Shown here in pieces: positions 5,429 through 63,708 of a stretch of DNA of 64,000 nucleotides. This DNA is from an uncultured Candidatus Saccharibacteria bacterium (GTDB lineage: Bacteria; Patescibacteriota; Minisyncoccia; Phycocordibacterales; UBA12088). The translations under genes were made by a program, and so were the position numbers. Position 1 is the stretch's first letter, and every line of letters starts with the position of its first letter. The stretch covers positions 164,710 to 228,709 of the forward strand of contig CAZMLK010000001.1 in NCBI GenBank assembly GCA_964567265.1. Reading direction: 5' to 3'. The notes beneath the pieces are model-generated. The model did not search any database. It was given only the letters and a program-made list of their open reading frames with translations, and was not told the DNA's origin.

Positions 5429-5490
5429 AGGTACAAAAATACCCGCCGAATGCGAGTTGTAACATCGCAGATCAGCAAAGGCGTACGGTG

Positions 5491-5901
5491 CTAAGAAGAC
5501 GCGTGCGGGTCAGGCAAATCAAAAGCGCGCATCCACCTGCTCTCCAATTTTTCCATTCTACCCCCATGTTCGAGTCCCTTCAAATGAAGCAGCCCGTGGA
5601 TAAAGAGATATCCAGCGAACTTTTCGGGAGTCATGTCGAATTTTTTTGCATCGACGCGCACACGAGGGAGTGCAAGATAGATCTCGCCGGCGGTCTTCGA
5701 GAGCGGGAACGAGAGCACGTTCGTCGGATAATCCTTGCCGCGATAGGTGCGGTTGAGCCTCCGGGAGCGCTGATCGCCGATGCAGACAAGGGTAAGATCG
5801 TAGTTCTTGCCCAGGATCTGCTCCTTCATAGACGAAAACGGCAGCCGGGGAGATTTTCCGGCTGTCGTGTTCACGAGCGTGAAGGACGCTCCTTTCTGCA
5901 T
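5491..5901 (-). CDS. ybeY: rRNA maturation endoribonuclease YbeY
   Basis: HGLLHLKGLEH metal-binding motif of UPF0054/YbeY, 136 aa. Confidence 0.8.
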   Translation of the reverse strand: MQKGASFTLVNTTAGKSPRLPFSSMKEQILGKNYDLTLVCIGDQRSRRLNRTYRGKDYPTNVLSFPLSKTAGEIYLALPRVRVDAKKFDMTPEKFAGYLFIHGLLHLKGLEHGGRMEKLESRWMRAFDLPDPHASS

Positions 5902-5902
5902 A

Positions 5903-6157
5903 CTACTTCTTGTGAGGGGCCCCTGGGACGTGTTCCGCGATCTTGCCGCTCTTCAGCATCTCGTTGTAGTTCTCGCGGCGGGCGATCTTCTGGAGGGTCT
6001 TCTTCTTCTGGGTTGCCTTTGAGAAGCCGCGTGCGTAATAGCGGATGCTGCGGACACGCTGAAGGATGCCTGAACCCTGGACGCGCTTGGTGAACTTGCG
6101 TACCACGCTCGCGGTCGATTCGTTGTGGGCCTTCTCTATTTGTACGTTGATTGCCAT
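5903..6157 (-). CDS. rpsU: 30S ribosomal protein S21
   Basis: 84-aa basic protein, KRVQGSGILQRVRSIRYY, typical S21 length and composition. Confidence 0.8.
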   Translation of the reverse strand: MAINVQIEKAHNESTASVVRKFTKRVQGSGILQRVRSIRYYARGFSKATQKKKTLQKIARRENYNEMLKSGKIAEHVPGAPHKK

Positions 6158-6258
6158 AGGTTTGGAGACTATACCACAGGGGGGCGATAGGGCGCAACTA
6201 CGGGGTTTCCCGCCCTTTTGGCTTCGCCAAAAGGGCGGGAACTGACACTCTTCGACCG

Positions 6259-7494
6259 CTAGGCGCGGCTCATCTTCAGATAGGTAGGAAGGGCATCGAT
6301 CCGGACGGTCTGCTGGGCGCGGGTCCCGATATTCCGGACGATGACAGAGCTTTCGACGGCTTCCTTCTGTCCCATGATGATGAGATACGGAATCGAGAGG
6401 CGCTCTGCTTCTGAAATCTGGCTCGAGAAGCCGGATTCCGCTATCGAATGGTGGAATGGGATATGTGCCTTCCGCAAGGTCTCGATGACGGAAATGCTGT
6501 GGCGCTTGGCCTCGGTCCCGAGATGGACGAAATAGACCTTCGGCGCTTTGACGCGGATAGGCGCGACCGCGGAGGTGATGGTATTTCCGGGGTTCTGCAT
6601 TGAGAAAATGATGCCGACGGCAGGAATGGCGGTCTTGAACATGCGCTTCGAGAGCTCATCGTAGCGGCCGCCGCGGATGCGGAGATGTGAGGAGGCGGCA
6701 GGCTCGGACGGCGCAGTACCTTCGGCCGCGCGTTCCCTGATCTCGAAGACGGTTTCTGTGTAGTATTCGCGGCCGCCCATCAGCGTGTCATCAAGCTCAT
6801 AAGGGATTCCGGTCGCTTCGAGCTGCTCCAGGACTTCACGGAAATGGCGTCGGCTTGCTGCAGAAAGGAATTCGACCGGGCGCGGGAGTTCCTCGACGAT
6901 CGGATGCTTCTTCTTGATGAGATAGAGGAATGCTTCCATCGGATCGGTCTTGAGCGCAAGTTCAGCAGGAGCGGGGAGGTCGGCAATCCGCTTCCGCAGG
7001 TTTGATGCGAGCTCGCGGCCGAACCGCGCGGTCGAATCCTTGTCGCCGATAGAGTTCAGGTACACCTGCATGTCGGAGTGCCCGCCTTCCTCGAGAATCG
7101 AAAGCGACGCCTTGAGGACAACAGCCTCGCCAACGCTGCTCTGATTGGCGCCGTATGCCTGGAGCCCGAAGGAGAAAGACTTGAAATCGGATTTAGGAGA
7201 TGCGCCTTTCTTCACGAAATCGAGCGTGGTGTGGAAGAAGAGGAACGGATTGCGGCGGGAGAGGAGTCCTTGCTCGCCGCACACGCGGAGCGTCTTCGTG
7301 AATTCGGTACCCGCGAGGTCGGTGCTTCGGAGCGGTGCCGAATTTGGCACGGGGAACAGCCGCTCCTTCTTGCCGCCGCGCGAATTGAGGGCTTTCTCGC
7401 TCACCTCGGTGAACGGAAGGAATCCATAATGGCTTGCGGTAGTCGCTGCGCGCTTTAAAAAATCTGCGCCATTCTGTTTGCGTCCTTGGATCAT
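6259..7494 (-). CDS. hisS: Histidyl-tRNA synthetase homologue (class II aaRS core plus anticodon-binding domain), motif 2/3 divergent
   Basis: REYYTETVFE and RGGRYDEL HisRS motifs, C-terminal HGTP-anticodon-like domain; see finding on missing arginines. Confidence 0.7.
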   Translation of the reverse strand: MIQGRKQNGADFLKRAATTASHYGFLPFTEVSEKALNSRGGKKERLFPVPNSAPLRSTDLAGTEFTKTLRVCGEQGLLSRRNPFLFFHTTLDFVKKGASPKSDFKSFSFGLQAYGANQSSVGEAVVLKASLSILEEGGHSDMQVYLNSIGDKDSTARFGRELASNLRKRIADLPAPAELALKTDPMEAFLYLIKKKHPIVEELPRPVEFLSAASRRHFREVLEQLEATGIPYELDDTLMGGREYYTETVFEIRERAAEGTAPSEPAASSHLRIRGGRYDELSKRMFKTAIPAVGIIFSMQNPGNTITSAVAPIRVKAPKVYFVHLGTEAKRHSISVIETLRKAHIPFHHSIAESGFSSQISEAERLSIPYLIIMGQKEAVESSVIVRNIGTRAQQTVRIDALPTYLKMSRA

Positions 7495-7516
7495 TGGTGC
7501 TCGAATCGGGTCATTA

Positions 7517-8119
7517 CTACTCCGTAGTGCTATTCGTCGCAGAAATGTCGTACTTGCCTGGGAAAATATTTATCCGCGCGAGCGGCAGGAGACGGACCGC
7601 TGCCCGTCCGATCATGTCTTCTTTCGGCACCGGGCCCCAGATACGGGAATCGGAGCTCGCGCGGCGATTATCGCCCATGACGAAGTACTCGGTATCCGAA
7701 AGCTTTGTGGTGCCGTAGAATTCGCGGTCGTTTCCTTGGGCCACATAGGGTTCAACCAATTGCTCGGTGCGCTTGCCGTCTTTGTCGTGGATGATGACGG
7801 TGCTGCCGCGCACTTCAACCGTCTCGCCCGGAAGTCCGATGAGACGCTTGATGAAGTACTTTGAAGTGTCGCGCGGATATTTGAAGATGACGACATCGCC
7901 GCGCTTCGGTGCGTCGAAGCGGTAAGAGAGCTGGTCGACGATGAGGTATTCGCCGGTCTCGAATGTTGGAGACATCGATTCGCCCGACACGATGAAAGGC
8001 TGTGCGACGAAAAGTCGGAATGGGACGACGATGAAAAGGGCTATGACCGCGAACTTGAAAATTTCGGTGAAGAAATTTTCTTTTTGAGGTTCCATTGCGA
8101 CGTATTGTAATACGTCCAT
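7517..8119 (-). CDS. lepB: Signal peptidase I
   Basis: SGESMSPT (Ser box), KRLIGLPGE, GDNRRASSDSR boxes; start trimmed to MDVLQY before TM anchor. Confidence 0.85.
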   Translation of the reverse strand: MDVLQYVAMEPQKENFFTEIFKFAVIALFIVVPFRLFVAQPFIVSGESMSPTFETGEYLIVDQLSYRFDAPKRGDVVIFKYPRDTSKYFIKRLIGLPGETVEVRGSTVIIHDKDGKRTEQLVEPYVAQGNDREFYGTTKLSDTEYFVMGDNRRASSDSRIWGPVPKEDMIGRAAVRLLPLARINIFPGKYDISATNSTTE

Positions 8120-15816: not shown

Positions 15817-15860
15817 GAAAGGCCGCCCTGTGCGGATGCACAGGGCGGCCTTCACGTTTT
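15817..15860 (+). terminator. Rho-independent terminator
   Basis: aaaggccgccctgtgc-ggatg-cacagggcggcctt then cacgtttt. Confidence 0.65.
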
Positions 15861-15934
15861 ACATTCATTTCCGCGGCTATACACAGACCGCCCGCGCGCC
15901 TTCGGCGCGCGGGCGGTTATACTGTACTGTACCG

Positions 15935-16471
15935 ATGTTTGCAAAACCAGATACGATTCTCGGAGGCTTTGGAGTGGAACCTGGATGGCTGGTTGCCGAC
16001 CTGGGAAGCGGTGCTGGTGCATATACACTTCCTTTGTCAGATCTCGTCGGCCCATCTGGTCGCGTGTATGCGATCGATGTCCAGCCGGAACTCCTCCGTA
16101 AGGTCAAGGACCTGAGCGACAAGAACAGGCGGGAGAATATCGACATCGTGAGGGGTAATATCGAAGAAATCGGAGGGACGCATCTCAAGGATGCGTCCGT
16201 GGATGCTGTGGTGGTCTCGAATGTCTTCTTCCAAATCGAAGAAAAGGGAAGTTTCATCGCCGAAATAAAGCGCATCCTCAAGCCGCGGGGCCGCCTGCTC
16301 CTTTCGGATTGGGAAGATTCCTTTAACCACATGGGACCGCATCCCGATGCAGTCGTTCCGGAGGCAAAAGCGGAAAAGCTGTTCGGGCAGGCAGGCTTCA
16401 GGGTGGAACGTACCATTCCAGCAGGAGAACATCATTACGCCATTGTATTTAGATATATCCCCGAATCATGA
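15935..16471 (+). CDS. Class I SAM-dependent methyltransferase
   Basis: VADLGSGAGAYTLPL motif I, D/E-loop, about 178 aa; start trimmed to MFAKPD. Confidence 0.7.
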   Translation: MFAKPDTILGGFGVEPGWLVADLGSGAGAYTLPLSDLVGPSGRVYAIDVQPELLRKVKDLSDKNRRENIDIVRGNIEEIGGTHLKDASVDAVVVSNVFFQIEEKGSFIAEIKRILKPRGRLLLSDWEDSFNHMGPHPDAVVPEAKAEKLFGQAGFRVERTIPAGEHHYAIVFRYIPES

Positions 16472-17766
16472 AAGGCCCCAATTTCTTTCAAATAGGCATT
16501 CTGGTCATCTTTACGTTGTTCATCTTCGGGGCAGTGCTGTATTTTGCCCTCTTCAAGGGTGCAGGCGCCTTTGGTTCGGCAGGAAGCGTCGTGATCTGGG
16601 GAACGCTTCCTGCGAACATCATGATCGAGCCTTTGGCCACCATCAAGAAGAAGGAAAGCGGCCTTGATAGCGTTTCGTATGTCGAAAAAGATCCGCGTAC
16701 GTATGAGAATGATATCCTCGAAGCGCTCGCGTCGGGTAAGGGTCCGGACCTCATCCTCCTTTCGGAAGACCGGGTAATGGCCAACCTCGACCGTATCACC
16801 CTCATCCCGTATACCTCGCTCTCCGAGCGCACCTTCAAGGATACATTCATAGAAGAAGCCGACCTCCTCTTGTTCCCGAAGGGAATCGTGGGCCTCCCGT
16901 TCTACTTCGACCCGCTGGTGATGTACTGGAATCGCGACATGTTCGCGACCGCAGGTCTCGCGACACCACCTGAGTATTGGGACGAATTCTTCACCATCAT
17001 CCCGAAGCTGACCAAGCGGGATAACAACCAGAACATCCTCAGGAGCGGGCTCGCGTTCGGTGAATATGACAACGTGACCCACGCGAAGGATATCCTCGCG
17101 CTCCTCATGCTCCAGGCGGGGACGCCGATCGTAGTCCGGAATGGTGAAAAACTCTCGCCGAACTTCGAGCTCAATGTGGACGGCGGTAATCCGGATCCGG
17201 GCGCAGCTGCGCTCCGCTTCTATACGGAATTCTCCAATCCGATCAAGAACGTCTACTCATGGCACCGTGCCCTTCCGGAATCCAAGCAGATGTTCCTTTC
17301 CGGGGATCTTGCTATCTATTTCGGCTTTGCCAGCGAATATCGTGATTTGAAGCGTGCCAATCCGAACCTCAACTTCGACCTCAAGGTGGTCCCGCAGTCG
17401 AGGACTGCGAAGCGTCGGACGTCATATGGCACCTTGACCTCGTTCATGATCCCGAAGCTTGCAAAGAATCCGAGCGGTGCCTATATCGCGGAAACCATCC
17501 TGGTACGGAGCGATCCCTTGAAGATCTTCGGAGAGCGGACCGAGATGCCGCCGGTACGACGTGACCTCCTAGCGACCCCGCAGACTGATGCCTACAAGAG
17601 CGTGACCTACAGTTCAGCGATCATCGCCCGATCATGGCTTGATCCGGATTCCGACAAGAGCGATGCGGTGTTCCAGACCATGGTCAACCAGATAACTGCC
17701 GGACGGAAGGAGCTCTCAAAGGCGCTCACAGAGGCGGAAAGCGAGCTCGCAAATCTATTCCACTAG
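16468..17766 (+). CDS. Membrane-anchored extracellular solute-binding-protein-like protein
   Basis: N-terminal TM, YWNRDMF...PPEYWDEF pattern typical of family-1 ABC substrate-binding proteins; ATGA overlap with upstream gene; no permease nearby. Confidence 0.5.
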   Translation: MKGPNFFQIGILVIFTLFIFGAVLYFALFKGAGAFGSAGSVVIWGTLPANIMIEPLATIKKKESGLDSVSYVEKDPRTYENDILEALASGKGPDLILLSEDRVMANLDRITLIPYTSLSERTFKDTFIEEADLLLFPKGIVGLPFYFDPLVMYWNRDMFATAGLATPPEYWDEFFTIIPKLTKRDNNQNILRSGLAFGEYDNVTHAKDILALLMLQAGTPIVVRNGEKLSPNFELNVDGGNPDPGAAALRFYTEFSNPIKNVYSWHRALPESKQMFLSGDLAIYFGFASEYRDLKRANPNLNFDLKVVPQSRTAKRRTSYGTLTSFMIPKLAKNPSGAYIAETILVRSDPLKIFGERTEMPPVRRDLLATPQTDAYKSVTYSSAIIARSWLDPDSDKSDAVFQTMVNQITAGRKELSKALTEAESELANLFH

Positions 17767-17775
17767 TTTTATACT

Positions 17776-18144
17776 ATGTTCATGAACAGACTCCTCCAGC
17801 CGTGCGCACGCTTCCTGTCGGCGCTCGCAGTGCTCGCTCTCCCGATGGTCGCATTCGGCCAGACTCGATTCGCGAATCCTATTGCAGCCGGATCGCTCAC
17901 TGAGCTCCTTACAAAGGTCCTCGATGCCGCCATCTTGATCCTTTTCCCGTTCATCGTGCTCTACATCGTCTATGCGGGCTTCAAGCTCGTGACCGCTCAG
18001 GGAAATTCAACAAAGATAGAAGAAGCAAAGCGGCAGATCATGTACGCGCTTATCGGCGCAGTCATCGTCCTTGCCGCCGGCGCGATCTCGATCGCGATCA
18101 AGACGACGGTTGAGAATATCCGCGGCGAACCGTTCCCTACATGA
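17776..18144 (+). CDS. Pilin-like small membrane protein, paralog A (TrbC/VirB2-type architecture)
   Basis: Signal peptide plus two TM helices; first of six tandem paralogs. Confidence 0.55.
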   Translation: MFMNRLLQPCARFLSALAVLALPMVAFGQTRFANPIAAGSLTELLTKVLDAAILILFPFIVLYIVYAGFKLVTAQGNSTKIEEAKRQIMYALIGAVIVLAAGAISIAIKTTVENIRGEPFPT

Positions 18145-18479
18145 TGACCGTACGGAAACAAAAAGCAATGGCAGGAAAGCGTGTGGGAGTAATAGCAATC
18201 GGCATGCTTTCATTGGCGTTCCTGCCGGAGATTGCCCTCGCGGCAAGCTTCAAGCAATTCGTGTCGATCCTGATCGGACTCGTTGAGACGGCGACCTTTC
18301 TTCTTGGGACCATCCTCCTCCTTGTCTTTTTCTGGGGAATCGCGCGCTTTATTTTCAATGCAAGCAACTCCCAGAAACACGCTGAGGACAAGACCTTCCT
18401 TTTCTGGAGCGTGCTCTGCCTCGCGGTCATGTTCTCGGTATGGGGCCTTGTCGAGATCTTGCGAGTAACGCTCATATAA
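18141..18479 (+). CDS. Pilin-like small membrane protein, paralog B
   Basis: Signal peptide, FFWGIARFIF and WSVLCLAVMFSVWGL helices. Confidence 0.55.
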   Translation: MMTVRKQKAMAGKRVGVIAIGMLSLAFLPEIALAASFKQFVSILIGLVETATFLLGTILLLVFFWGIARFIFNASNSQKHAEDKTFLFWSVLCLAVMFSVWGLVEILRVTLI

Positions 18480-18491
18480 TTACTCTGGGAC

Positions 18492-18890
18492 ATGAGACAC
18501 TTCACTCCATTCCTTTCCATCGTGTTGCTCGCGTTCGCCGTTTCGGTGCCTTTGCCGACGCATGCGGCCGCTACACTCTTCGATCTCATCGCAGGCGCAA
18601 CCGGAGTCGTACAGGCATTCACCGGGGTGGCATTCCTCTCAGCGCTCCTCTTCTTCTTCTGGGGTCTGGCGAAATATCTCTATGGCGGTACTGATGATGC
18701 GAAAGTGTCCGGAAGGAGCCTCATGCTCTGGGGAACCATAGCGCTCACAGTCGCCGCAACCGTCGGAGGGCTCGTCGCAGTCTTCCAGGTGACCTTCGAT
18801 ATCGACGGTGTTGATCCTGGCGGGACGCATACCTGCGTGCCGGAACTCGGCGGGGCGCCGACGAAGACTTGCCGAGACAGTGATCCATAG
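18492..18890 (+). CDS. Pilin-like small membrane protein, paralog C
   Basis: FFFWGLAKYLYGG and LWGTIALTVAATV motifs shared with neighbours. Confidence 0.6.
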   Translation: MRHFTPFLSIVLLAFAVSVPLPTHAAATLFDLIAGATGVVQAFTGVAFLSALLFFFWGLAKYLYGGTDDAKVSGRSLMLWGTIALTVAATVGGLVAVFQVTFDIDGVDPGGTHTCVPELGGAPTKTCRDSDP

Positions 18891-18987
18891 CTCTGTGGAG
18901 AAGTAGGTGGACACAGAGGCGTTCCACGCTATGATTACAGGGAAATTTCTTCAGCCTCCGACTTTATCAGGTCACAGAACTCATCCA

Positions 18988-19380
18988 ATGAATGTCATGT
19001 CAAAAATCGGAACGGAAATGCACGTCACCCGCGTACGGGTTGCGGCATTTTTCTCAGTGCTCGGGGCATCCACTTTGCCGCTTCTTGCCTACGCACAGGA
19101 TGACGCGTTCGAAACCGCGAACAGTGTCGCCGACAGCCTCATCGAGATTGTCAACGCGCTTATCATCGCAGCATTCGGGCTCATCCTTCTCGCCTTCTTC
19201 TGGGGCCTTGCAAAGTACATCTTTGGCGGTGCCGACGAGAAATCGAACGGAAAGAGCCTCATGTTCTGGGGAGTCATCGCTCTTGCCGTCGCCGCATCGG
19301 TATGGGGCATTAAGTCGGTGTTGGTCACGACCTTCGGCATCGGGACCGATACCAGCGTGACCATACCATTCGCAGTCTAA
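18988..19380 (+). CDS. Pilin-like small membrane protein, paralog D
   Basis: AFFWGLAKYIFGG and MFWGVIALAVAASVWGI motifs; start trimmed to MNVMSK. Confidence 0.6.
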   Translation: MNVMSKIGTEMHVTRVRVAAFFSVLGASTLPLLAYAQDDAFETANSVADSLIEIVNALIIAAFGLILLAFFWGLAKYIFGGADEKSNGKSLMFWGVIALAVAASVWGIKSVLVTTFGIGTDTSVTIPFAV

Positions 19381-19478
19381 AATACCTCTATCCACAGCCC
19401 CGGCTTGAATTATGGCTTGGTGGAGGTATCATGAAGGGTAAGTCGGTCGGAATTAATACTTTTATTTACTAGTAGAAT

Positions 19479-19844
19479 TTGATTATGAAGAAATTTGTCA
19501 CTGCAGCAACCGCAATCGGCGCATTCGCACCTGCATTTGCTTTCGCTGCACCGCTTGCCACAGGATTCGGTCCTACACTGCAGGCTACTGTCGACACGAT
19601 TGGTGCCATCGTCAACGCCCTTATCCCGATCGCCTTTGCAGCAGCGCTCCTCTTCTTCTTCTGGGGTCTCGCCAAGTACCTCCTTGGAGATGCAACCGAG
19701 CACGAGAAGGGCCGCAACCTCATGATCTGGGGCGTGATCGCGCTTGCGATCATGGCTTCCGTGTGGGGAATCGCCGCTGTCCTCCGCACGACCTTCGGCG
19801 TCGGAGGAGATACCACTGCGACTGTGCCGAAAGTCACTCCGTAA
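19479..19844 (+). CDS. Pilin-like small membrane protein, paralog E
   Basis: FFFWGLAKYLLGD and MIWGVIALAIMASVWGI motifs; own -10-like TAGAAT upstream. Confidence 0.6.
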   Translation: MIMKKFVTAATAIGAFAPAFAFAAPLATGFGPTLQATVDTIGAIVNALIPIAFAAALLFFFWGLAKYLLGDATEHEKGRNLMIWGVIALAIMASVWGIAAVLRTTFGVGGDTTATVPKVTP

Positions 19845-19913
19845 TCTGGCCTGCCTGTCGTAAGCTAGACCTCAGCATCTCTCCATTGCCAGTGCACTCG
19901 GAAGATCTGGCGA

Positions 19914-19952
19914 ACCGGGCCAACGATGCGAATCGTTGGCCCGGTTTCGGGT
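19914..19952 (+). terminator. Intra-array terminator/attenuator hairpin
   Basis: ccgggccaacgat-gcgaa-tcgttggcccgg then tttcgg. Confidence 0.5.
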
Positions 19953-19972
19953 CTGGAGGCAGCCTCCTGTAC

Positions 19973-20320
19973 ATGAAAAAAGCAATCCTTACCGTCCTCA
20001 CGTTTTCTGCGATTCCTGGAATCGCGCTTGCCGCATTTCCGGATACGATGGAAGAATTCGTGAACAGGGTCAATGATGCCATCATCAACCCAATCCTGGC
20101 CCTCATCTTTGTGTCTGCGCTCCTTTATTTCTTCTGGGGCGGCATCCAGTTCCTCCTCAATGCGGACAATGCGACCGCACGCACCGATGGCAAGAACCAC
20201 ATGTTCTGGGGAATCATCGGCATGTTCGTCATGGTCTCGGTCTATGCACTCCTCGCGGTGCTCCTCGGGACCTTCGAGGTCGCGCCGCCCGCTGGTCTTC
20301 CGATCGACAGCTGGATATAG
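19973..20320 (+). CDS. Pilin-like small membrane protein, paralog F
   Basis: MKKAILTVLTF signal peptide, YFFWGGIQFLLNAD and MFWGIIGMFVMVSVYAL; GGAGG RBS. Confidence 0.6.
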   Translation: MKKAILTVLTFSAIPGIALAAFPDTMEEFVNRVNDAIINPILALIFVSALLYFFWGGIQFLLNADNATARTDGKNHMFWGIIGMFVMVSVYALLAVLLGTFEVAPPAGLPIDSWI

Positions 20321-20329
20321 CGCAGGTTT

Positions 20330-20373
20330 TGCAAAAAAGAAAAAGGCGTGCAGGGGAGAACCCTGCACGCCTT
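20330..20373 (-). terminator. Rho-independent terminator (minus strand)
   Basis: aggcgtgcagggg-agaa-ccctgcacgcct preceded by a long A-tract on the plus strand. Confidence 0.65.
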
Positions 20374-20388
20374 CGCGATAATGAACAT

Positions 20389-22245
20389 TTACTTAGCGTT
20401 GACGGCCACTGTAATCAGTAGCGCGCTGTCCGCGTCCGGTGAGACATGGAAGGCGATGGCAACCTGGTTGCTACCAGATTTTCCGATCAATGTTTTGACA
20501 TCGGGAGTCTTGACTGGCTCCTTGTTCGCATCGCGGAACTCGGCAGTGATGAAGCCCTTTTTCAGTGTCGTGGTCGCCCACTCGGCCTTCGAGGTTTCAT
20601 CCCAGCAGAGCCAGCCGCTCCAGTTCCCCGGCTTCACCGTGATGTGGTTGGTGATTCCGGGAGGGAAGATGTACCGGCATTCTGCAACTGAAGCTTTTTG
20701 CGACTGGCCCGCAAAGCGAGCGGTAATCCCTGAGCTGGTTGCCAGTATTCCGAGGAGTAGGAGCGTTAGTATCGCGATGATGGCGGTCTTGCTCATGAGC
20801 CGGCCGAGGCCGGGTACGAGCGAGAGTGTCATGTAGATGAAGGGGATTACGAATCCCCAGACCCCGAGCGTCAAGAGAAGCTCGATGATGGGTCCGAGCC
20901 CGCTCCACCAGCGGTTCGAGTCATCGAACCCAAGGAAGAAGAACAGGGCCATGAGCATTGCGACTACAGAGAGTACCTTGAGCTGCTCCCGTGGCAGATG
21001 ACCCGTCGCATAGTAGCTGACCGCGAACGCGAGCAGCCCGAATGCGAAGAGGCCTTCGACAAGATAGATGCGACCCAGGGTCGGCATTCCGGCGGAAGCA
21101 AGGATGCCCCAGCCGAACCGCTGATCACAAAGCGTGAACAACGTCGCGGAGATAAGTATGATGAGCAGGAAGGAAAGCAGCCTTGCAAACCCACCGTAAA
21201 CTAACCCGTCCGCCGCGAAGACCTTTATACGGCCCGCGAGCGAACCCAAAATTAAGAGAACAGTGAACGCCTCACGCTGAGGCATCCAGATGCGCACCCA
21301 TTCGACCACACGAGCCGCTGTGACCCAGCCTTCTTTCGTGAGGTACGCTCCGAAGACTGGTAGATTCGCGACGATATGCGGATAGACGGAGTATGCGAAC
21401 GCGCCGAAGGCGATTGCTCTGAGCGTTATGAATGCCCATCCAAGAGTCCTGGGGAGCTGCGCTCCCCAGCGGAACGTGAAGCAGAGCGCCAAAAATATGA
21501 CGACGTACTTCCACAAGACCGGGTGATGGACGAGGGATGCGCTCGCGCTTTGCGGCATCAGGCCTGTCGGGTCGGAACCCAAGAGGTAGAGTGCTGTCAG
21601 TGGGAGGAGGATCAAGATCACTGCAGCGAGGGAAGGCCACGAGTCACGTGCGAACCGCGTAAGCCGCGATGGGTCCGTGTCGGGGGGCGTTCCCGGATCA
21701 ACTGCTGGCGCAGCAGCAACGGGAGTGGCAACAGGTGCCGCGACAGGTGCTGCTGCCGGAGGCGTCGCCACAGGCGGCACAACTGCAGCTGGTGCAACTG
21801 GAGCAGCGTATGACGCTTGAGCTGGCACCGGCGGTGCCAGCCATCTCCGAACGAGATACATGATCCCGATCCCGCCTGCCGTAGCGAGGACGAGGAAGGG
21901 AAGCAGTATCTTTAGCGCGATGCCGAGGCCATAGTTGAGCGTGCTCTGAAAGTCCGTGAACCATCCGGTGTACCACGTCAGTGCTATCCCGGATAGGATG
22001 AGGAGAAGCAGTACATGCTTTCGATTCAGTGTGTCCATTGTTCCTCCCAGGGTTGCTGTGGTTGAGGAGAACCCTCGGCGCGCGGCGGACAGCGTGTGCT
22101 GTCCGCCTGCAACCGCCATTCTCCGAAGCTGCTGTTCAATCCTTCCCCCTCTAGCATGACGCCAGACGAGGAAGGCAAGTGCTGCAGTTCCGCAGATGCG
22201 GAGTGCTATAAGGAGCCATCCTCCTAAGGGAAAGAAATCGATCAT
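20389..22245 (-). CDS. Large polytopic membrane protein (about 10 TM) with Pro/Ala-rich linker and C-terminal beta-rich domain
   Basis: 618 aa, many hydrophobic helices, PPVPAQASYAAPVAP...AAAPAVDPGTPPDTD linker; translationally coupled to upstream SPFH gene. Confidence 0.6.
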   Translation of the reverse strand: MIDFFPLGGWLLIALRICGTAALAFLVWRHARGGRIEQQLRRMAVAGGQHTLSAARRGFSSTTATLGGTMDTLNRKHVLLLLILSGIALTWYTGWFTDFQSTLNYGLGIALKILLPFLVLATAGGIGIMYLVRRWLAPPVPAQASYAAPVAPAAVVPPVATPPAAAPVAAPVATPVAAAPAVDPGTPPDTDPSRLTRFARDSWPSLAAVILILLPLTALYLLGSDPTGLMPQSASASLVHHPVLWKYVVIFLALCFTFRWGAQLPRTLGWAFITLRAIAFGAFAYSVYPHIVANLPVFGAYLTKEGWVTAARVVEWVRIWMPQREAFTVLLILGSLAGRIKVFAADGLVYGGFARLLSFLLIILISATLFTLCDQRFGWGILASAGMPTLGRIYLVEGLFAFGLLAFAVSYYATGHLPREQLKVLSVVAMLMALFFFLGFDDSNRWWSGLGPIIELLLTLGVWGFVIPFIYMTLSLVPGLGRLMSKTAIIAILTLLLLGILATSSGITARFAGQSQKASVAECRYIFPPGITNHITVKPGNWSGWLCWDETSKAEWATTTLKKGFITAEFRDANKEPVKTPDVKTLIGKSGSNQVAIAFHVSPDADSALLITVAVNAK

Positions 22246-23624
22246 CAGTTCCCATCTCCTTGGGTTGGGGGCGCCGCGGCAGGTGCCGCGTCGTCTGTTT
22301 TCGCCTTGCCTTGCCTGCGGATGCCGGCAAGGTTCGCAGTCTGCGACTCTCGTTGGCCAGCCCCGATGAACATGTCGACATTGGACGCATTCCTTGCAGC
22401 TTCAACGCCTGCGCGATTCCGCAGGTATTCTTCCGCGAACTGGCCGTGCTCTTCGATTCCCGCAAGCTCTTCTTCAATGATCTTACGGCGGCCCTTCGCT
22501 TCACCCGTGAGTTCTTCGGCGGTACGCTTGCCCTTCTGTTTGCCTTCGAACTCTGCAGCGAGGAAGCCTTCGATATCTTTGGCGCGCGCCGGATCAAGAT
22601 CTGGATCGCGGACATCGACATCCTTCACTACCTCGAACCCGATTGATTGGATGAACTGCTCTCTCGGAACACGCACGATGGACGCATTCGGATCACGTTT
22701 CTTCCGTGCAGCGAGGTCCGCGTCAATGACATCCTGTTCGACGCCCATGAGGCCGTCTCGGATGAATTGCGCGAGCGCACGCTTGTCTTCCGGCGACATT
22801 TCTCTGCCGGCATAGACTTGCCTGATGTCAGCTCCCTGGGCATATTCGCGTACGAGGTTTTGGACCCTGACCGCGATCTGCTGCTCCCACGCCCTGGCTT
22901 CCCAGAACGCGAGTACCGGGTTCACGCACCGAAGCGTGAGCACGATATGGAACCGGACATCATAACCTTGGAGCGTCGGTACCCCGGCACTGATGACGTG
23001 CAGCTGAAACTGCGCGTGGACCACCTTGCCGGTACGATCCTTCTCAGGTTCGTAGATCTCCACTTGCTTGCCGTCCCGTACGACGATGTCGTAGCGGACG
23101 CGGCGGAAGTCACGCGTCTCAACAGCCCACCCAAGCGGTGATAGCACGAGATGGGTGCCGGTCACTGCTTGTACGACGCGACGTGCGGCGTACCAGGGGC
23201 TGAACCACCCCCACTTACTGTAGAGGGGTCCATGGACCGGGTGCCGTGTCTTGTCGTGGTTGATGTGCCAATCCGCAACGCTCTTCTTGCTCGGCACTCG
23301 ACCCTTGTCGAGCTGCCATTCAAAGCAGGATTCAGACGCGGCGTCGATGAGATACGCGCTCACGTTTCCGCCGTAGGTCAGGCATACCACCGCATCCGGT
23401 TGCACCTCAACGAAGAGGTACTGCTCCGGAAGGGGAGGCTTGCCCTGGGCGATACGCGCAGCGTTCGTCTTGTCGATATTCGCGTCGTAATGCAGATTCT
23501 TATGCCAGAAGAATGTCGAGGCAGCTGCACCGACGGCGAGCGCGTAGATGGACGCGTACGATGCGAGTCCAGTGATGAAGAGACCCTGCCACATTCGATT
23601 TTTCCTTAAGTTGTCGAGGAACAC
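22245..23624 (-). CDS. SPFH/band-7 domain membrane protein (flotillin/stomatin-like)
   Basis: N-terminal TM, SPFH-like core, long charged coiled-coil C-terminus; 459 aa. Confidence 0.6.
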   Translation of the reverse strand: MFLDNLRKNRMWQGLFITGLASYASIYALAVGAAASTFFWHKNLHYDANIDKTNAARIAQGKPPLPEQYLFVEVQPDAVVCLTYGGNVSAYLIDAASESCFEWQLDKGRVPSKKSVADWHINHDKTRHPVHGPLYSKWGWFSPWYAARRVVQAVTGTHLVLSPLGWAVETRDFRRVRYDIVVRDGKQVEIYEPEKDRTGKVVHAQFQLHVISAGVPTLQGYDVRFHIVLTLRCVNPVLAFWEARAWEQQIAVRVQNLVREYAQGADIRQVYAGREMSPEDKRALAQFIRDGLMGVEQDVIDADLAARKKRDPNASIVRVPREQFIQSIGFEVVKDVDVRDPDLDPARAKDIEGFLAAEFEGKQKGKRTAEELTGEAKGRRKIIEEELAGIEEHGQFAEEYLRNRAGVEAARNASNVDMFIGAGQRESQTANLAGIRRQGKAKTDDAAPAAAPPTQGDGN

Positions 23625-23825
23625 CGAGGGTGTACCCTCACAGTTTCGACTAGCAGACGGAATGCCTGCTTCTGCGGAGATTTATATCATATAAAAATAC
23701 AAAAGTCAAGCTATAGCTTGACGCGATGACGGCAGAATAGTCTTATTTTAAGTCGTGGTTTGGGGGGAGGGGAGACAAAATTGACTGGGCAATTTTTGAG
23801 CGGATTCGTCTTTGTTTGTTGGAGG

Positions 23826-23910
23826 AGGACTTGGTCACGAGTTACTAAGGATTGCTCGTCACAAGCTCCTCAAATCCTAAGTACTCGTGACCCCGCCTCA
23901 GAGCTGGGGG
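23826..23910. repeat. Palindromic ~80-nt repeat element, copy 1 (tRNA-trailer associated)
   Basis: ggtcacgagttactaaggatt...aatcctaagtactcgtgacc inverted repeat followed by CCCGCCTCAG; about 92% identical to copy at 24318-24400. Confidence 0.7.
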
Positions 23911-24069
23911 AGAGGAATCTTGGTCCTTACAGGACCTGTACACCTTTCGTATTTTTTCGGAGCAGAGCTCCTCAAAAATATACTCAAGGTCGTTCATGTC
24001 CTCTCACGCGAGGCGAGCAGTCGCCTCGCTCCCAGCACTGCGAAAATTCCGCAAAGCTCCATTTTCTAG

Positions 24070-24151
24070 TGCTGGGGAGAGGACTTGAACCTCCATGGGT
24101 TGCCCCGTCTGCTCCTAAGGCAGGTGCGTATACCAATTCCGCCACCCCAGC
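24070..24151 (-). tRNA. tRNA-Leu (anticodon TAG)
   Basis: Cloverleaf with long variable arm, anticodon loop CTTAGGA, GTTCAAGTCC T-loop; no encoded CCA. Confidence 0.85.
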
Positions 24152-24317
24152 ATGTGTGTACTATAGCAAATAGACCTCCGCCATGGCTGCTTCTTCACAA
24201 GGAACTCTCTCCCTTACGGGAGCAGTATCCCGATTGGGTTTTTTGAACGGCCAGCAAAGGCCGTCAAAAAAAGCTCAATCGGGCTTCGAGTCCTTGTGGA
24301 ACTCTCCAAGAAGGTGC

Positions 24318-24400: not shown

Positions 24401-24467
24401 GCTCCGCGGGAGCCTGGACTCTCGGCCTTCGAGTCCTTGTGGGCTCAAAATTTCTTCGAAATTTTAG

Positions 24468-24540
24468 TCCGCCCACAAGGACTCGAACCTTGGACCATCT
24501 CCTTAAGAGGGAGTTGCTCTACCAACTGAGCTATGGGCGG
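24468..24540 (-). tRNA. tRNA-Lys (anticodon CTT)
   Basis: GCTCAGTTGGTAGAGC D-arm, anticodon loop CTCTTAA, GGTTCGAGTCC T-arm. Confidence 0.8.
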
Positions 24541-31344: not shown

Positions 31345-34044
31345 ATGACACCATTCAACAATTTCACAACCAAAGCTAAGGATGCCGTCCGGAAGGCGCA
31401 TGAGCTCGCGATCGAACGCGGGCAGAACCATGTGAATCCGCTCCATCTCTTGACCGCGCTCGTCCTCCAGGAGGAGAGCATGGTCTTTTCAGTACTCGAA
31501 CGGTTGGATGTCGATGCGGTCCTGCTTACCGACACGCTCCTCGAGGCGCTTGAAGCGCCTGAGGGATCTTCGGTACTCTCGCCGTCGTACCAGCTCTACC
31601 TCACGCCCGAGCTCGCGCAGGTCCTCGAGAATTCCGCGCGCATCGCTTCGGCGCTCGGCGACCAGTTCGTCTCGACCGAGCACATCTTCATCGCCATCCT
31701 CGACAACCCCGGACCGGCGCGCGAGATCATCGCCCGCTTCCGCTTCGATCGCAATTCCGTTATCCGTGTCATCCAGGAACTGAAGGCGAACAATGTCACC
31801 GATGTCTCGCAGCCGAAGAAGTTCAAGGCGCTCGCGAAGTACACGCGGAATCTGACCGCGCTCGCCGCGGAGAACAAGCTCGACCCAGTGATCGGCCGCG
31901 ACGTCGAGATCAACCGCGTCATCCAGATTCTCTCGCGCCGCACGAAGAACAACCCGATCCTCATCGGCGCTGCAGGCGTGGGGAAGACTGCGATCGCCGA
32001 AGGGCTCGCGACACGCATCGCGACCGGCGACGTCCCGGAATCGCTCCGCGGGAAGGACTTGGTCGCGCTCGACCTCGGCATGCTCATTGCGGGTACCAAG
32101 TACCGCGGCGAGTTCGAAGAGCGCCTCAAGAACATTATGAAAGAAGTCGAGCGCGCTGATGGAAAAGTCATCCTCTTCATCGACGAGATGCACACGATCG
32201 TGGGCGCCGGCGCTGCTGAGGGCGCGATGGACGCATCGAACATGCTGAAGCCAGCGCTCTCGCGTGGCGAGCTCCGCGTCATCGGTGCAACGACTCTCAA
32301 CGAATACCAGAAGCACATCGAGAAGGACGCGGCGCTCACGCGCCGCTTCCAGCCGGTCCATGTGGAAGAGCCGACCCTTGAAGACGCGGTCGCCATCCTC
32401 CGCGGCCTTCGCGAGAAGTACGAGGTGTACCACGGGGTGCGTATCACCGACGATGCGATCGTCGCTGCAGTGAATCTCTCCGCTCGATACATCCCTGACC
32501 GATTCCTCCCGGACAAGGCGATCGACCTCATCGACGAGGCCGCATCCGGACTCCGCATTTCACTCGAGAACAAGCCGCCTGCACTCGAGGAAGCGCAGCG
32601 GAAGATCATGCGCCTCGAAGTCGAGAAGGAAGCGCTCTCGAAGGATCTCGACATCCACGAAGGACGCGACACGAAGGCGCGCATCAAGCAGATCGAGAAG
32701 GACATCGCCGATCTTCGCGAGAAGACGGGCGACCTCGAGCTCCGCTGGAACAACGAGAAGGAAGTACTCTCCGATATAAAGGCGCTGAAGAAGCAGCTTG
32801 AGACGCTCCGCAATGAAGCTGAGAACGCGGAGGCGGTCGCAGACCTCTCACGCGCAGCGGAAGTCCGCTACGGCAAGATTCCTGCGCTTGAGAAGGATCT
32901 CGATGCGAAGACCAAGCGCTTGAAGCGCTTCCAGCAGACGCGCCGCGTCCTCAAGGAAGAAATTATGGAAGAGGACATCGCCTCCGTGGTCTCACGCTGG
33001 ACCGGCGTTCCTGTCGCGCGCATGCTCGAGGAAGAAGCCGAGAAGCTCTCGCGCATGGAAGAAGTCCTCAAGAGCCGAATCGTCGGCCAGGATGACGCCG
33101 TCCTCAAGGTTGCATCTGCCGTGAAGCGCTCGCGTGCGGGCATCAGTGACCCGAACCGTCCGATCGGCTCGTTCCTGTTCCTCGGCCCTACTGGCGTTGG
33201 AAAGACCGAGCTCTCGAAGGCGCTCGCGGAATTCATGTTCGACAATGACAAGGCCTTGATCCGCGTCGACATGTCCGAATACATGGAGCGGCACTCAGTC
33301 GCGAAGTTGATCGGCGCGCCTCCAGGATACGTCGGCTTCGAGGAGGGTGGCTCGCTCACGGAAATCGTGCGCCACCGCCCATACTCAGTGCTCCTCTTCG
33401 ACGAGATCGAGAAGGCGCACCCAGAAGTCTTCAACATCCTCCTCCAGGTCCTCGACAACGGCCATTTGACCGACTCAAAGGGACGGAGCGTGAACTTCAA
33501 GAACACCATCATCATCCTCACCTCGAACATCGGATCGCAGTACATCGACCGCATGTCGCAGATCGGATTCGCGAAGGACAGCGGCAACGAGGCGGTCGCG
33601 TACGAAGTTACCAAGGACAAGGTCATGGAAAGCCTCAAGGATTACTTCCGTCCGGAATTCCTGAATCGTCTCGACGAGATCCTCATCTTCAACATGCTCT
33701 CGAAGGAGGCGATCAAGGATATCGTCGGCATGCAGGTGAAGCTCGTCATGGAGCGCCTCAAGCAGAAGAACATCGCGCTCGAGCTCACCGAAGCGGTGTA
33801 CGAGCTTCTCGCGAAGGAGGGCTACGATCCGCACTACGGCGCCCGCCCGCTCAAGCGGCTCATCCAGAACAAGATCCTGACCCCGGTCGCGTCGATGATG
33901 ATCTCCGAAGGCCTCCTCCATGGCGGCACGGTCCTCGTCGATATCAAGAATGGCGTCTTCACCTTCGACGGCAAGAAAAGCCGCAAATCGGCGAAACGGA
34001 GTTCTATCAGAGCTTCCAAAAATCTCGAGGAGGTGGTAGCGTAG
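31345..34044 (+). CDS. clpB: Chaperone ClpB (AAA+ disaggregase, two NBDs plus middle coiled-coil)
   Basis: Clp_N repeats, [15 protein letters not shown] Walker A, FIDEMHT Walker B, long M-domain, second GPTGVGKTE, 899 aa. Confidence 0.95.
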
Positions 34045-34205: not shown

Positions 34206-34386
34206 AGCAAAGCGCTGAGCGCTTTGCGTGAGGGATTCGAAGACCTTTTCGATGTTTGTGAGGAGCTTTGCTCTGAACAAACCGAAAAGGTGTACTGCGC
34301 CTGTAAGGCGAGAATCTCGAATCCTCCAAAAATCTATCCCCACACAAAACACCCAATCGAAGCCACTTTCCCGCTATACTTTCCCT

Positions 34387-35508
34387 ATGCACCGCATACG
34401 GCCTCTCCATCGGTTCTTGATCGGGAGTCTTTTCCTGTTTCTCACTATTTTGCCGATTACGATGCTCTCGGCACAAAACCTCATCCCTTGCAGCGGGCCC
34501 GACTGCGATCTCTGCAGCTTCGTCCAGCTCGGGCAGAACATCATCAACTTCCTCGTCTACTTCTCGACCCTGCTTGCGACGGTGCTCTTCTGCTATGCCG
34601 GATTCAAGATGCTGACCGGAGCCGATAACCCAGGCGCGATCACCAAAGCAAAAAAACTCTTTTGGACAGTCCTCTGGGGCTTCGCGCTTCTCCTGGCGGC
34701 ATGGCTCATCCTCGATACTGCGATGCGTCTCCTCTTTGAGGATTCGGAGCTTCGCGCCACCGAATTCGGACGTCCGTGGAACGAGATCCTCTGCCAGTTC
34801 CAGAACGGCGCGCCGGCGCAGAATGTCTTCGTCACATTGACGGCGACGCCGAATCCGATAGCCGTGCCGGGCGGCAACATTACGCTTACCTGGACATCAT
34901 TCGGGGCAATAGCCTGTGCTGCGGGCGGGGGCTGGGCGGGCACGAAGGCGCTCAACGGGTCGGAAGTGGTCGCAATCACAACAACTACGGCGTTCGCGCT
35001 CTCCTGCGTCAATGCTGATGGGGATAGCGCAACAGTCACTGTGAGCGTGGTGGTTGGTACCGGGCCTGGGCCTGGAAGCTGTAGCATCACGGAGGATGGT
35101 CCCTGCGGTACCATCGCGCTCGCGGACATGTTCGGTCCAATCGCATCCCAGGCGTCTCAAATCTGCAGCGCGGAAAGCGCTGGTGATCCTGCGAGCGAAA
35201 GCAAGACCGACATCCTCATTGCGTCCGGACTTCCATTCTCGATCGGTCTTTTCCAGATCAACATGACGCAGCACAATCTGACGGGTCCCGCATGCAGGGC
35301 GCTCAATGGCGGGAACCCGCTCAACTGCATCAGCGCGTTTTCTGGGAAGAATTACACCGCCACGATCGTGGATATGCCGCTCTACGAGCAGTGCCGCGCC
35401 GCCCTCAAGAATCCGGATTGCAATGCTGAAACGGCGGCAGGTATCGTGACCACAGACGGCGGCAGCTGGCGCCAATGGTCCACGGCCAAGAAATGTAAAC
35501 TTCCGTAG
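34387..35508 (+). CDS. Composite secreted protein: pilin-like N-domain + Ig-like region + lytic transglycosylase (SLT-like) domain
   Basis: Signal peptide, CSGPDCDLCS, two TM helices (paralog of 36180-36611), then C-terminal AESAGDPASES...GLFQIN SLT/GEWL signature. Confidence 0.6.
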   Translation: MHRIRPLHRFLIGSLFLFLTILPITMLSAQNLIPCSGPDCDLCSFVQLGQNIINFLVYFSTLLATVLFCYAGFKMLTGADNPGAITKAKKLFWTVLWGFALLLAAWLILDTAMRLLFEDSELRATEFGRPWNEILCQFQNGAPAQNVFVTLTATPNPIAVPGGNITLTWTSFGAIACAAGGGWAGTKALNGSEVVAITTTTAFALSCVNADGDSATVTVSVVVGTGPGPGSCSITEDGPCGTIALADMFGPIASQASQICSAESAGDPASESKTDILIASGLPFSIGLFQINMTQHNLTGPACRALNGGNPLNCISAFSGKNYTATIVDMPLYEQCRAALKNPDCNAETAAGIVTTDGGSWRQWSTAKKCKLP

Positions 35509-62844: not shown

Positions 62845-63708
62845 ATGGTTACCCAGTACGTACTCTATGCGATCGCGGTCCTCGTCGTTTTTTTCTTCCT
62901 CAGCGGCATCCGCATCATCCGCCCCACGCAGCGTGCGGTCGTTGAGCGTCTCGGACGGTATAAGAATTTCGCCAATCCCGGTTTTCACTGGATCATCCCC
63001 ATCATCGACCAGATGGAGAAGGTCGATACCACTGAGAACATGGTGGATATCGCGGCACACGAGATCATCACTGAGGACAATCTGAACGCGAAGGTGGACA
63101 TGATGATCTACTTCCAGGTGAAGCATGACGAGGAGAGCGTGAAGCGCTCTCTCTATGAGGTCAGCGACTTCCGGAGCCAGATCGTTTCACTCGCGCAGAC
63201 CACTGCCCGCAATGTCATCGGCGGCATGGCGTTCAAGGACGTGAACTCGCAGCGCTCGAAGCTGAATGTCGCGCTTGCGACCATTCTCCGCGCGGAGACC
63301 GCGAAGTGGGGTGTCGAAGTAGTCCGTGTCGAGATGAAAGAGATCATCCCGCCGACTGATGTGCAGGAGACCATGAACATGGTCATCAAGGCCGAGAACA
63401 GCAAGCGCTCCGCGATCGACTTCGCGACCGCGAAGGAAACGGAAGCCGATGGTAACCGCCGCGCGATGATCAAGGAAGCCGAAGGAAAGAAGCAGGCTGC
63501 GATCCTCGAAGCCGAAGGACAGGCGCAGGCGTTCGATCTCATCAACAAGGCATTCACTGGAAACGCGCAGATCCTGAAGCAGCTTGAAGTCACGCAGAAC
63601 GCGCTCCAGGACAACGCGAAGATCGTCCTCACGGACAAGGGAATTTCCCCGCAGCTCATCCTCGGCGATCTGCCGCTTCCGATGAAGCCCGCTCCGAAGA
63701 GTTACTAG
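62845..63708 (+). CDS. SPFH/band-7 family protein (stomatin/HflK/C-like)
   Basis: N-terminal TM, SPFH core (RIIRPTQRAVVERLGRY...), coiled-coil C-terminus. Confidence 0.85.
   Translation: MVTQYVLYAIAVLVVFFFLSGIRIIRPTQRAVVERLGRYKNFANPGFHWIIPIIDQMEKVDTTENMVDIAAHEIITEDNLNAKVDMMIYFQVKHDEESVKRSLYEVSDFRSQIVSLAQTTARNVIGGMAFKDVNSQRSKLNVALATILRAETAKWGVEVVRVEMKEIIPPTDVQETMNMVIKAENSKRSAIDFATAKETEADGNRRAMIKEAEGKKQAAILEAEGQAQAFDLINKAFTGNAQILKQLEVTQNALQDNAKIVLTDKGISPQLILGDLPLPMKPAPKSY

Follow-up and report, generated by a model that had tools for sequence, protein, structure and literature searches.

Conserved gene pairs encoding a putative, highly divergent SPFH-family protein and a membrane partner face VirB2-like pilin arrays in Paceibacteria

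The window analysed here is a stretch of 64,000 nucleotides of contig CAZMLK010000001.1 (positions 164,710 to 228,709, forward strand). On its minus strand lie two adjoining genes, A and B, which run tail to tail into six tandem VirB2-like pilin genes. Gene A appears to encode a very divergent SPFH-family membrane protein, and gene B encodes a polytopic membrane protein. The two make up an operon: it has a promoter of its own, each gene has a ribosome-binding site, the stop of A and the start of B share one base, and an intrinsic terminator closes the unit. In this window the pair represents a conserved module of Paceibacteria (Patescibacteria, or candidate phyla radiation, CPR), in which an SPFH-like gene and a membrane-partner gene face, tail to tail, a VirB2-like pilin array headed by a gene for a solute-binding protein (SBP). 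We propose, with a probability of about 0.5, that such pairs encode an SPFH scaffold and a client membrane protein serving a pilin-based envelope apparatus akin to a type IV secretion system (T4SS). The features on which the argument turns are as follows.

22245-23594, minus strand: gene A, 449 amino acids, putative, highly divergent SPFH-family membrane protein; the longest open reading frame reaches a GTG at 23624 (459 amino acids)
20389-22245, minus strand: gene B, 618 amino acids, polytopic membrane partner
22243-22261, minus strand: A/B junction, with Shine-Dalgarno sequence AAGGAG at 22261-22256, stop codon TGA at 22247-22245 and start codon ATG at 22245-22243
23681-23709, minus strand: putative sigma-70-type promoter of the A-B operon, TTGACT at 23709-23704, 17-nt spacer, TGnTATAAA, -10 hexamer at 23686-23681
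23595-23680, minus strand: 5' leader of the A-B operon, about 86 nt, two hairpins, Shine-Dalgarno sequence AAGGA at 23607-23603
20332-20374, minus strand: intrinsic terminator of the A-B operon, hairpin 20374-20342 with a 14-bp stem holding 9 GC pairs, then the T-run TTCTTTTTTG
17776-20320, plus strand: six tandem VirB2-like pilin genes, convergent on B
15830-17766, plus strand: methyltransferase gene and gene for a membrane-anchored SBP at the head of the pilin array, the latter used as the synteny anchor

An earlier note on this DNA (hereafter the original prediction) had described the pair as convergent on the pilin array, which agrees with the strands found here, and had asked whether it recurs in related genomes. 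It does so widely. We surveyed 80 GTDB species loci anchored on the SBP gene and searched their open reading frames with an iterated family hidden Markov model (HMM). A convergent SPFH-like gene was found in 34 of the 44 loci that have at least 7 kb downstream of the SBP gene, and in 41 across all loci; it lies a median of 3.7 kb past the SBP gene, with 3-8 (median 6) pilin-like genes in between. A membrane-protein gene on the same strand follows directly downstream of it in all but one of these species loci (40 of 41), all from Paceibacteria. The junction between the two genes measures -14 to +13 nt in about 20 loci, and in about 17 there is a gap of 100-250 nt.

Individual loci illustrate the arrangement. 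In locus L001, whose SPFH protein is 52% identical to A, a partner of 434 amino acids with eight helices and a Cys-rich tail begins 2 nt downstream and is followed by convergent PF18895 pilins. In L008 and L097, where the SPFH proteins are only about 20-26% identical, the order is again methyltransferase, SBP and six pilins, then the convergent partner and SPFH genes, with gyrA upstream in L008. The SPFH genes of L011 and L015 overlap their partner genes (200 and 248 amino acids) by one base.

In the window itself, four of the six array pilins match PF18895 (7.6e-12 to 1.1e-4), and the remaining two are clear paralogues that have an FFWGLAKY motif in common with a PF18895-matching gene. Patescibacteria are known to carry arrays of 2-11 VirB2-like pilin genes, defined as tandem genes for small two-helix proteins matching PF18895 or PF04956 (PMC12102498), and the window array answers to this description. 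The T4SS-like system and its pilin arrays are needed for epibiotic growth where this was tested, and are essential in Southlakia (PMC10633639); the system has no recognisable VirB1, VirB8 or coupling proteins (PMC12102498). In Southlakia a canonical slipin, encoded at a distance from the T4SS cluster, is the sole SPFH annotation.

A closer association with secretion genes is seen in L005, where the order is SPFH gene, partner gene, PrgI (VirB3-like, 1.4e-6), a TraC-like gene and VirB4, the last matching PDB entry 4AG5 at 1.4e-41 and TrwK at 9e-8. In L011 the pair sits between dnaA and yidC, and virB4 genes of Paceibacteria commonly lie near dnaA (Quinonero-Coronel et al. 2025; Wang et al. 2023). 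Thus, the positional half of the functional link to pilins that had been suggested holds, the pair being convergent on VirB2-like arrays in 41 Paceibacteria species loci and adjacent to VirB3-like, TraC-like and VirB4 genes in L005; the functional half we infer.

That A and B are real genes follows from their dN/dS (ratio of nonsynonymous to synonymous substitution rates) against the Logan orthologue, 0.08 for A and 0.25 for B, which indicates purifying selection on both. Both minus-strand open reading frames of the original prediction are present, as is the single base (22245) that the stop of A and the start of B have in common, in the motif TGATG instead of the ATGA first reported. The start of A is better revised, from the GTG at 23624 to the likelier ATG at 23594. 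AAGGA stands 8 nt 5' of this ATG, and an independent gene call on the 97%-identical orthologue of A gives 449 amino acids too; for these two reasons A is most likely 449 residues long.

The start of B differs among annotations. The NCBI protein begins at Met70 (549 amino acids), and the Logan orthologue was called from Met1 (618 amino acids), overlapping the SPFH stop. Codons 1-69 differ from those of the orthologue by a single nucleotide, and since this change is synonymous they cannot discriminate between the two starts. The Shine-Dalgarno sequence AAGGAG 10 nt 5' of the first ATG, the hydrophobic first helix and the coupled junctions found across the family favour Met1 over Met70. The co-translation originally predicted is therefore only partly upheld: the overlap makes it plausible here, but coupling is not family-wide and the start of B is ambiguous.

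The promoter-like site is kept in orthologous loci. Both hexamers are identical in L002, the equivalent in L001 reads TTGACT-17-TTTAAT, and in L008 a perfect TTGACA-17-TGnTATAAT stands 5' of the SPFH gene. A consensus promoter scan passed over the A-B site, where position 6 of the -10 hexamer is A. An 18-nt palindrome over the -35 box was considered as an operator, and the idea was dropped because the palindrome is not kept in L002. At the other end of the operon, the terminator adjoins the pilin array as had been noted: the hairpin and T-run lie between B and the last pilin gene (end at 20320), 14 nt past the stop of B and at a distance of 12-22 nt from that pilin gene.

As a separate observation, the 5' leader folds stably (minimum free energy -27.7 kcal/mol, z = -2.57) and is nearly identical in L002, with the motif GGTGTTCCTYGACA also kept in L001; it has no match in Rfam. 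This stable and conserved leader of the SPFH operon may be regulatory.

The SPFH label given to A in the original prediction is right but only just detectable, and it is borne out by transitive and profile evidence, not by a direct match. Searches of A against Pfam, NCBIfam and PHROGs give nothing at E<=1, PADLOC gives no meaningful match, and a profile of A and its two close homologues finds nothing in the PDB at E<=10. Just two relatives, 97% and 52% identical, came from a word-indexed search of 5.8 billion clusters with A. When 1.84 billion representatives were searched exhaustively in HMMER with a profile of A and the two homologues, only 18 were recovered (330-520 amino acids, E from 1e-220 to 7.5e-4). 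Few additions came from elsewhere: three proteins only from the word-indexed search with the resulting 19-member family alignment, one weak, short match from a metagenome scan with query P0005, and no relative from a genome-contig profile scan with A and the two homologues.

The family as a whole nevertheless carries an SPFH signal. Pfam Band_7 is touched by 11 of the 19 members (best 2.7e-6), and the 19-member profile matches, in the PDB, PH stomatin at 4.2e-9 and PH1511 at 4.8e-7, together with human stomatin, QmcA and HflK. Positional orthologues taken from 41 genomes enlarged the family, and a profile of 51 sequences built from it aligned in hhalign with a canonical SPFH pair, made up of the slipin encoded at 62845-63708 of the window and a PH stomatin fragment, with 99.4% probability and E of 1.3e-21 over 180 columns. 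A scores 5.5e-68 against the positional-orthologue family model, of which it is itself a part. As judged by such comparisons, A is among the most divergent SPFH members known. Two regions of A are delimited by hydropathy and profile alignment.

23514-23582, minus strand: N-terminal membrane anchor of A, residues about 5-27 (Kyte-Doolittle)
22590-23012, minus strand: SPFH-core-aligning region of A, residues about 195-335 (profile alignments to PH stomatin and the window slipin)

In the relatives of A, a K/R-rich stretch comes after one or two hydrophobic segments at the N-terminus, and this sequence after the anchors suggests that the SPFH domain is cytoplasmic. In A, about 130 residues, including an invariant Trp-rich SKWGWFSPWY segment, separate the anchor from the SPFH core. 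The core is followed by a charged region rich in E, A, K and R (residues about 335-410), and then by a conserved C-terminal 'VDxxIGxG' strand. The charged region is predicted helical only in a structure model with a predicted local distance difference test (pLDDT) score of 32; in the profile matches it is aligned with the helical part of stomatin.

The partner B evolves fast and spans the membrane many times. It consists of membrane helices 1-3, a Pro/Ala-rich linker, at least eight more helices and, at the C-terminus, a beta-rich domain or tail. Two parts of it are located as follows.

21670-21837, minus strand: Pro/Ala-rich linker of B, residues 137-192, with 17 Pro, 19 Ala and 9 Val among 56 residues
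20392-20724, minus strand: C-terminal beta-rich domain of B, residues 508-618, with Cys523 and Cys547

This outline accords well with the original prediction. About ten membrane helices had been expected in a 618-residue partner, and hydropathy gives 11 (13 in the orthologue at the same threshold); Pro and Ala account for 36 of the 56 linker residues; and the tail after the last helix, 107-111 non-hydrophobic residues with two Cys, is predicted to be all beta, as proposed, in a low-confidence AlphaFold model (pLDDT 36.5). Positive-inside counting is ambiguous for B, as the helix count of 11-13 sets the parity.

The identity of B is harder to place. No match was obtained in Pfam, NCBIfam, PHROGs or PADLOC, and among 5.8 billion clusters only two homologues were found, both close. 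B has no Pfam or NCBIfam match to NfeD (PF01957), in keeping with the earlier statement that it is not a classical NfeD protease. Sequence profiles give no NfeD signal that would bear out the OB-fold suggested for the tail in the original prediction. The VirB6/TrbL identity that had been put forward for checking found no such support, the search against PF04610 giving nothing at E<=1. Nor did a Pfam or NCBIfam transporter family match B; a known transporter with an isolated pairing would have been a more ordinary explanation, and here neither part of it applies, as the pair is conserved elsewhere. With its SPFH gene, B has the operon relationship of an NfeD-type partner (one-base overlap, common promoter and terminator). 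Its architecture is a different matter: NfeD proteins have about 140-150 amino acids, three N-terminal hydrophobic stretches and an all-beta domain (PMC2636767), and only the last 110 or so residues of B resemble this.

The tail of B changes fastest. Relative to the protein from the genome whose A is 97% identical, 23 of 71 substitutions fall within its 111 residues. A further, independent observation concerns the opposite end. Between B (20392-22245) and its counterpart in L002 (2217-4070), codons 1-136 differ at 7 nt (1.7%) and the remainder at about 13.5%, with dS (the synonymous substitution rate) of 0.06 versus 0.35-0.60. This mosaic divergence suggests recombination or a nucleotide-level constraint at the 5' end.

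Partners in the other loci vary greatly. Their length ranges from 147 to 618 amino acids, and the homology of B to them is not demonstrable, so that the large polytopic partner of the original prediction does not stand as a conserved feature. The usual layout comprises 3-4 helices, often preceded by an extra N-terminal helix and a low-complexity linker, and followed by a beta-rich tail of 80-120 amino acids with Cys pairs; many partners of 150-260 amino acids, with 3-4 helices and a tail of about 100, resemble NfeD in layout. The linkers are charged or Pro/Ala-rich and occupy a place comparable to that of the linker in B. An all-against-all BLAST joins 17 of 48 partners and an iterated HMM 25 of 48, and neither recruits B. 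With the partner of L001, B gives a BLASTP E of 1 and cannot be aligned, although the SPFH proteins of the two loci are 52% identical. The 47 partners scanned match 125 families, and NfeD and VirB6/TrbL are absent from the 25 most frequent of these.

Many partner tails have in common a domain of about 80 amino acids, 'hhVxAP.G.WS ... FKS .... hxhxh', whose profile finds nothing relevant and no NfeD chain in the PDB at E<=10. The tail of B has a 'VKPGNWSGW' motif, resembling the 'G.WS' of this domain, and a similar C-terminal strand pattern. Homology between the two was considered and rejected: hhalign gives a probability of 2%, 4 of 500 shuffles of the B tail score as high, and for the tail of its 89%-identical orthologue 74 of 500 shuffles score as high with the domain HMM.

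In 10-13 partners, a lysozyme-like domain lies between the helices and the tail, recognised by an E-S...GxxQI motif, by SLT_3 (9.6e-6) and by C-type lysozymes in the PDB (3e-5). It is not found in B. Such partners are listed by locus coordinates.

L073 14236-15426, L075 14007-15041, L041 13917-14846, L052 6278-7924 and about 9 more loci: lysozyme-domain partners, in which the 'G.WS...FKS' domain follows

These partners are candidates for supplying the VirB1 activity whose absence near Patescibacteria pilins has been reported. The Cys-rich and lysozyme-like tails suggest, furthermore, that the terminal domains of the partners face outward.

How might such a pair work? We propose that A, in the manner of other SPFH proteins, probably assembles into an oligomeric ring or cage attached to the membrane, that this ring probably encloses or corrals the co-translated partner B, and that enclosure by A would control the assembly, stability or placement of B. 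The module as a whole would most likely help to build or maintain the T4SS-like pilus and envelope apparatus on which these epibiont-type bacteria depend, because the pair travels with pilin arrays, adjoins VirB genes in one relative and includes partners with a lysozyme-like domain. The B protein of the window would then be a form of the partner that is expanded, specific to its lineage and without the lysozyme domain.

Several known systems resemble parts of this scheme. One group is that of the SPFH-NfeD operons, such as PH1511-PH1510, QmcA-YbbJ of E. coli, and FloT-YuaF and FloA-YqeZ of B. subtilis, in which tight, often start/stop-coupled genes encode an SPFH protein and a co-evolving membrane protein with N-terminal helices and a C-terminal beta-rich domain (PMC2636767); three membrane helices and an all-beta domain are the recorded layout of such operon partners. 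The pair described here departs from them in several respects. B has neither a detectable NfeD domain nor a ClpP-type protease domain, and NfeD does not figure among the listed families of the 47 partners. B is four times as long as NfeD, with at least 11 helices. Cys pairs occur in the partner tails, joined by the lysozyme-like domain in 10-13 species. A itself lies below Pfam detection, unlike the SPFH members of those operons.

The cages formed by HflK/C with FtsH and by stomatin with AQP1 or UT-B offer a second likeness. Stomatin cages enclose polytopic proteins (PMC12407830), and the A-B pair likewise combines an anchored SPFH protein, whose C-terminal region may be helical, with a polytopic possible client; the A-family profile matches HflK, QmcA and stomatin. 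B, however, is an orphan that belongs to no recognised family of proteases or channels, A has the 130 or so extra residues with SKWGWFSPWY between anchor and core, and the pair is known here from sequence.

Third, the logic proposed here, an SPFH scaffold that promotes the assembly of secretion or pilus machinery spanning the envelope, has parallels in two organisms: in S. aureus, flotillin (FloA) scaffolds the type VII secretion system (PMC5718613), and in Agrobacterium the type IV and type VI secretion systems are found in detergent-resistant membranes (PMC8656257). In those organisms the SPFH gene is unlinked to the secretion genes, whereas the link here is a conserved gene neighbourhood, known from genes. 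Fourth, the six-gene PF18895 array of the window is of the same kind as the Patescibacteria VirB2-like arrays reported previously (Quinonero-Coronel et al. 2025; Wang et al. 2023), and the dnaA position of L011 fits as well. Neither of these two reports mentions SPFH, stomatin or band 7, or includes this partner family among T4SS-associated genes. The pair is a new, very divergent version of the known theme of an SPFH protein with an operon partner, and its genomic association with T4SS-like pilin genes had not been described.

A number of points weigh against the proposed scaffold-and-client role, and they concern three things: the proteins, the coupling of the genes and the meaning of their position. 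First, A on its own has no SPFH signal (A and its two homologues alone give 0.2% probability against the canonical SPFH pair in hhalign), and its membership rests on intermediates. AlphaFold2 on three-row alignments reached a pLDDT of only 32.1 for A and 36.5 for B, and that A forms a ring or cage and contacts B we infer purely by analogy. B, in addition, is not demonstrably homologous to the partners of the other loci and has no lysozyme-like domain, and could be a non-orthologous replacement. Second, the 100-250 nt gap in about 17 family loci weakens an obligatory translational coupling, as the possible Met70 start of B at NCBI may also do. Third, the A-B and pilin units are convergent and not co-transcribed. 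The SBP and pilins occur without the pair in 10 of 44 loci, which means that the pilin array needs no pair in cis. No VirB4 was found among the window open reading frames scanned. Adjacency in small syntenic genomes may come from common descent and not from function, and, with PF18895 pilin genes frequent in these genomes, some of the proximity, as in L011, may be chance.

These points of position lead to the main rival, which we consider possible though clearly behind the scaffold-and-client role. It holds that A and B are a generic SPFH/NfeD-like housekeeping pair, active in membrane-protein quality control or in microdomains, with no specific relation to pilins, and that they lie tail to tail with the pilin genes through synteny inherited in streamlined genomes. 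SPFH genes are often accompanied by a gene for a three-helix, all-beta membrane protein (PMC2636767), a layout that many of the partners match; the flanking genes (gyrA, IF-2, tRNAs) are housekeeping genes, the two convergent operons have separate promoters, and the 10 loci with pilins and no pair fit such a view. What counts against it is, to begin with, the missing NfeD link: neither an NfeD (PF01957) match nor an NfeD-structure signal was obtained for B, nor does one appear among the most frequent families of the 47 partners. A canonical slipin gene, moreover, is present at another place in the genome (62845-63708). In a separate arrangement the pair stands within a VirB3-like/TraC-like/VirB4 cluster, and the lysozyme-like and Cys-bearing partner domains point toward the cell wall, unlike the cytoplasmic OB domain of NfeD.

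A stronger form of the scaffold-and-client role, which we put forward as speculative and rather doubtful, would make the SPFH protein and its variable partner a dedicated and hitherto overlooked module for assembling the T4SS-like pilus of Patescibacteria. The ring would act as a platform, and the partner would supply a function reported missing, namely cell-wall opening (VirB1-like, where the partner is lysozyme-like) or a channel or anchor. The rapid divergence of the partners, like that of the pilins, would then stem from host-specific surface interactions.

It is improbable, in our estimate, that B is instead an inner-membrane channel or platform subunit of a T4SS-like pilus, analogous to VirB6, PrgH or TrbL, with the SPFH protein as its dedicated assembly chaperone. 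Extended VirB6 proteins are large and polytopic and have a terminal soluble domain; B shares these properties (at least 11 helices) and adjoins the pilin array, and in L005 the pair stands beside VirB3-like and VirB4 genes. Yet no TrbL/VirB6 match was obtained for B or seen among the listed partner families, and the window open reading frames scanned include no VirB4. Partners elsewhere, with 147-260 amino acids and 1-4 helices, or with a lysozyme domain, are a poor fit to a conserved channel subunit. Finally, it is very unlikely that B is a permease or channel acting together with the upstream SBP and regulated by the SPFH protein, as stomatins bind and regulate transporters (PMC12407830): an SBP gene without ABC permease or ATPase does head the pilin array and B does have 11-13 predicted helices, but no transporter family matches B, most of its positional equivalents have 3-4 helices and a beta or lysozyme-like ectodomain and are not permeases, and the SBP is encoded on the opposite strand, in the pilin operon.

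Much of the uncultured bacterial diversity belongs to the Patescibacteria. The SPFH-partner module next to their pilin arrays is conserved and had not been annotated before; with a partner that is sometimes lysozyme-like, it offers concrete candidates for the missing assembly functions, and it adds to the SPFH superfamily a very divergent branch with a non-NfeD operon partner. Should the link prove syntenic only, the annotation would still be useful, turning two 'hypothetical proteins' into an SPFH scaffold and its client.

The surroundings of the pair in the window are as follows. The order is gyrA, methyltransferase, SBP and six pilins on the plus strand, then B and A on the minus strand; past A come a PAP2 protein, a short IF-2, DUF4446, a cysteine desulfurase, ClpB and a pilin-SLT_3 fusion. 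Only two tRNA genes, on the same strand as the SPFH operon, lie between it and the PAP2 gene.

24069-24151, minus strand: tRNA-Leu(tag), overlapped by the plus-strand open reading frame 23760-24173
24467-24540, minus strand: tRNA-Lys(ctt), just upstream of tRNA-Leu(tag)
62845-63708, plus strand: canonical SPFH/slipin gene, the second SPFH gene of the window (Pfam Band_7, 3.9e-35)

The open reading frame 23760-24173 (plus strand, 137 amino acids) was rejected as spurious on account of its overlap with tRNA-Leu(tag). Another, 5' of the canonical slipin gene, was discarded as an NfeD-like partner: it overlaps tRNA-Gln and, read from a later Met, encodes about 175 amino acids with one membrane helix. 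In L008, genes for LemA, a TPM_phosphatase and an unannotated 371-amino-acid protein (4987-7814, minus strand) stand directly 5' of the SPFH operon and replace the tRNA/PAP2 region of the window; a 792-amino-acid protein encoded 5' of the pair in L006 has no PDB match.

On the pilin side, the methyltransferase, SBP and six pilin genes (15830-20320, plus strand) appear to form a single operon, in which genes overlap by 4 nt at 16468-16471 and 18141-18144. Their order is kept in at least 41 species. An SBP gene without ABC permease or ATPase would here share a transcript with VirB2-like pilin genes. The closest relatives of the SBP come from metagenome-assembled genomes of Paceibacteria/Parcubacteria (Kaiser-, Adler-, Zambryski-, Taylor- and Nomurabacteria), at 39-47% identity.

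Two further observations were made downstream. The window has two genes for ClpB-like AAA+ proteins, at 31345-34044 and 52361-54832 (both plus strand), the second of which has no detectable first AAA module or Clp_N. Between them, at 34228-35508 (plus strand), a T4SS_pilin domain (PF18895) is fused to an SLT_3 lysozyme-like domain, an arrangement that may tether a VirB1-like activity to a pilin module.

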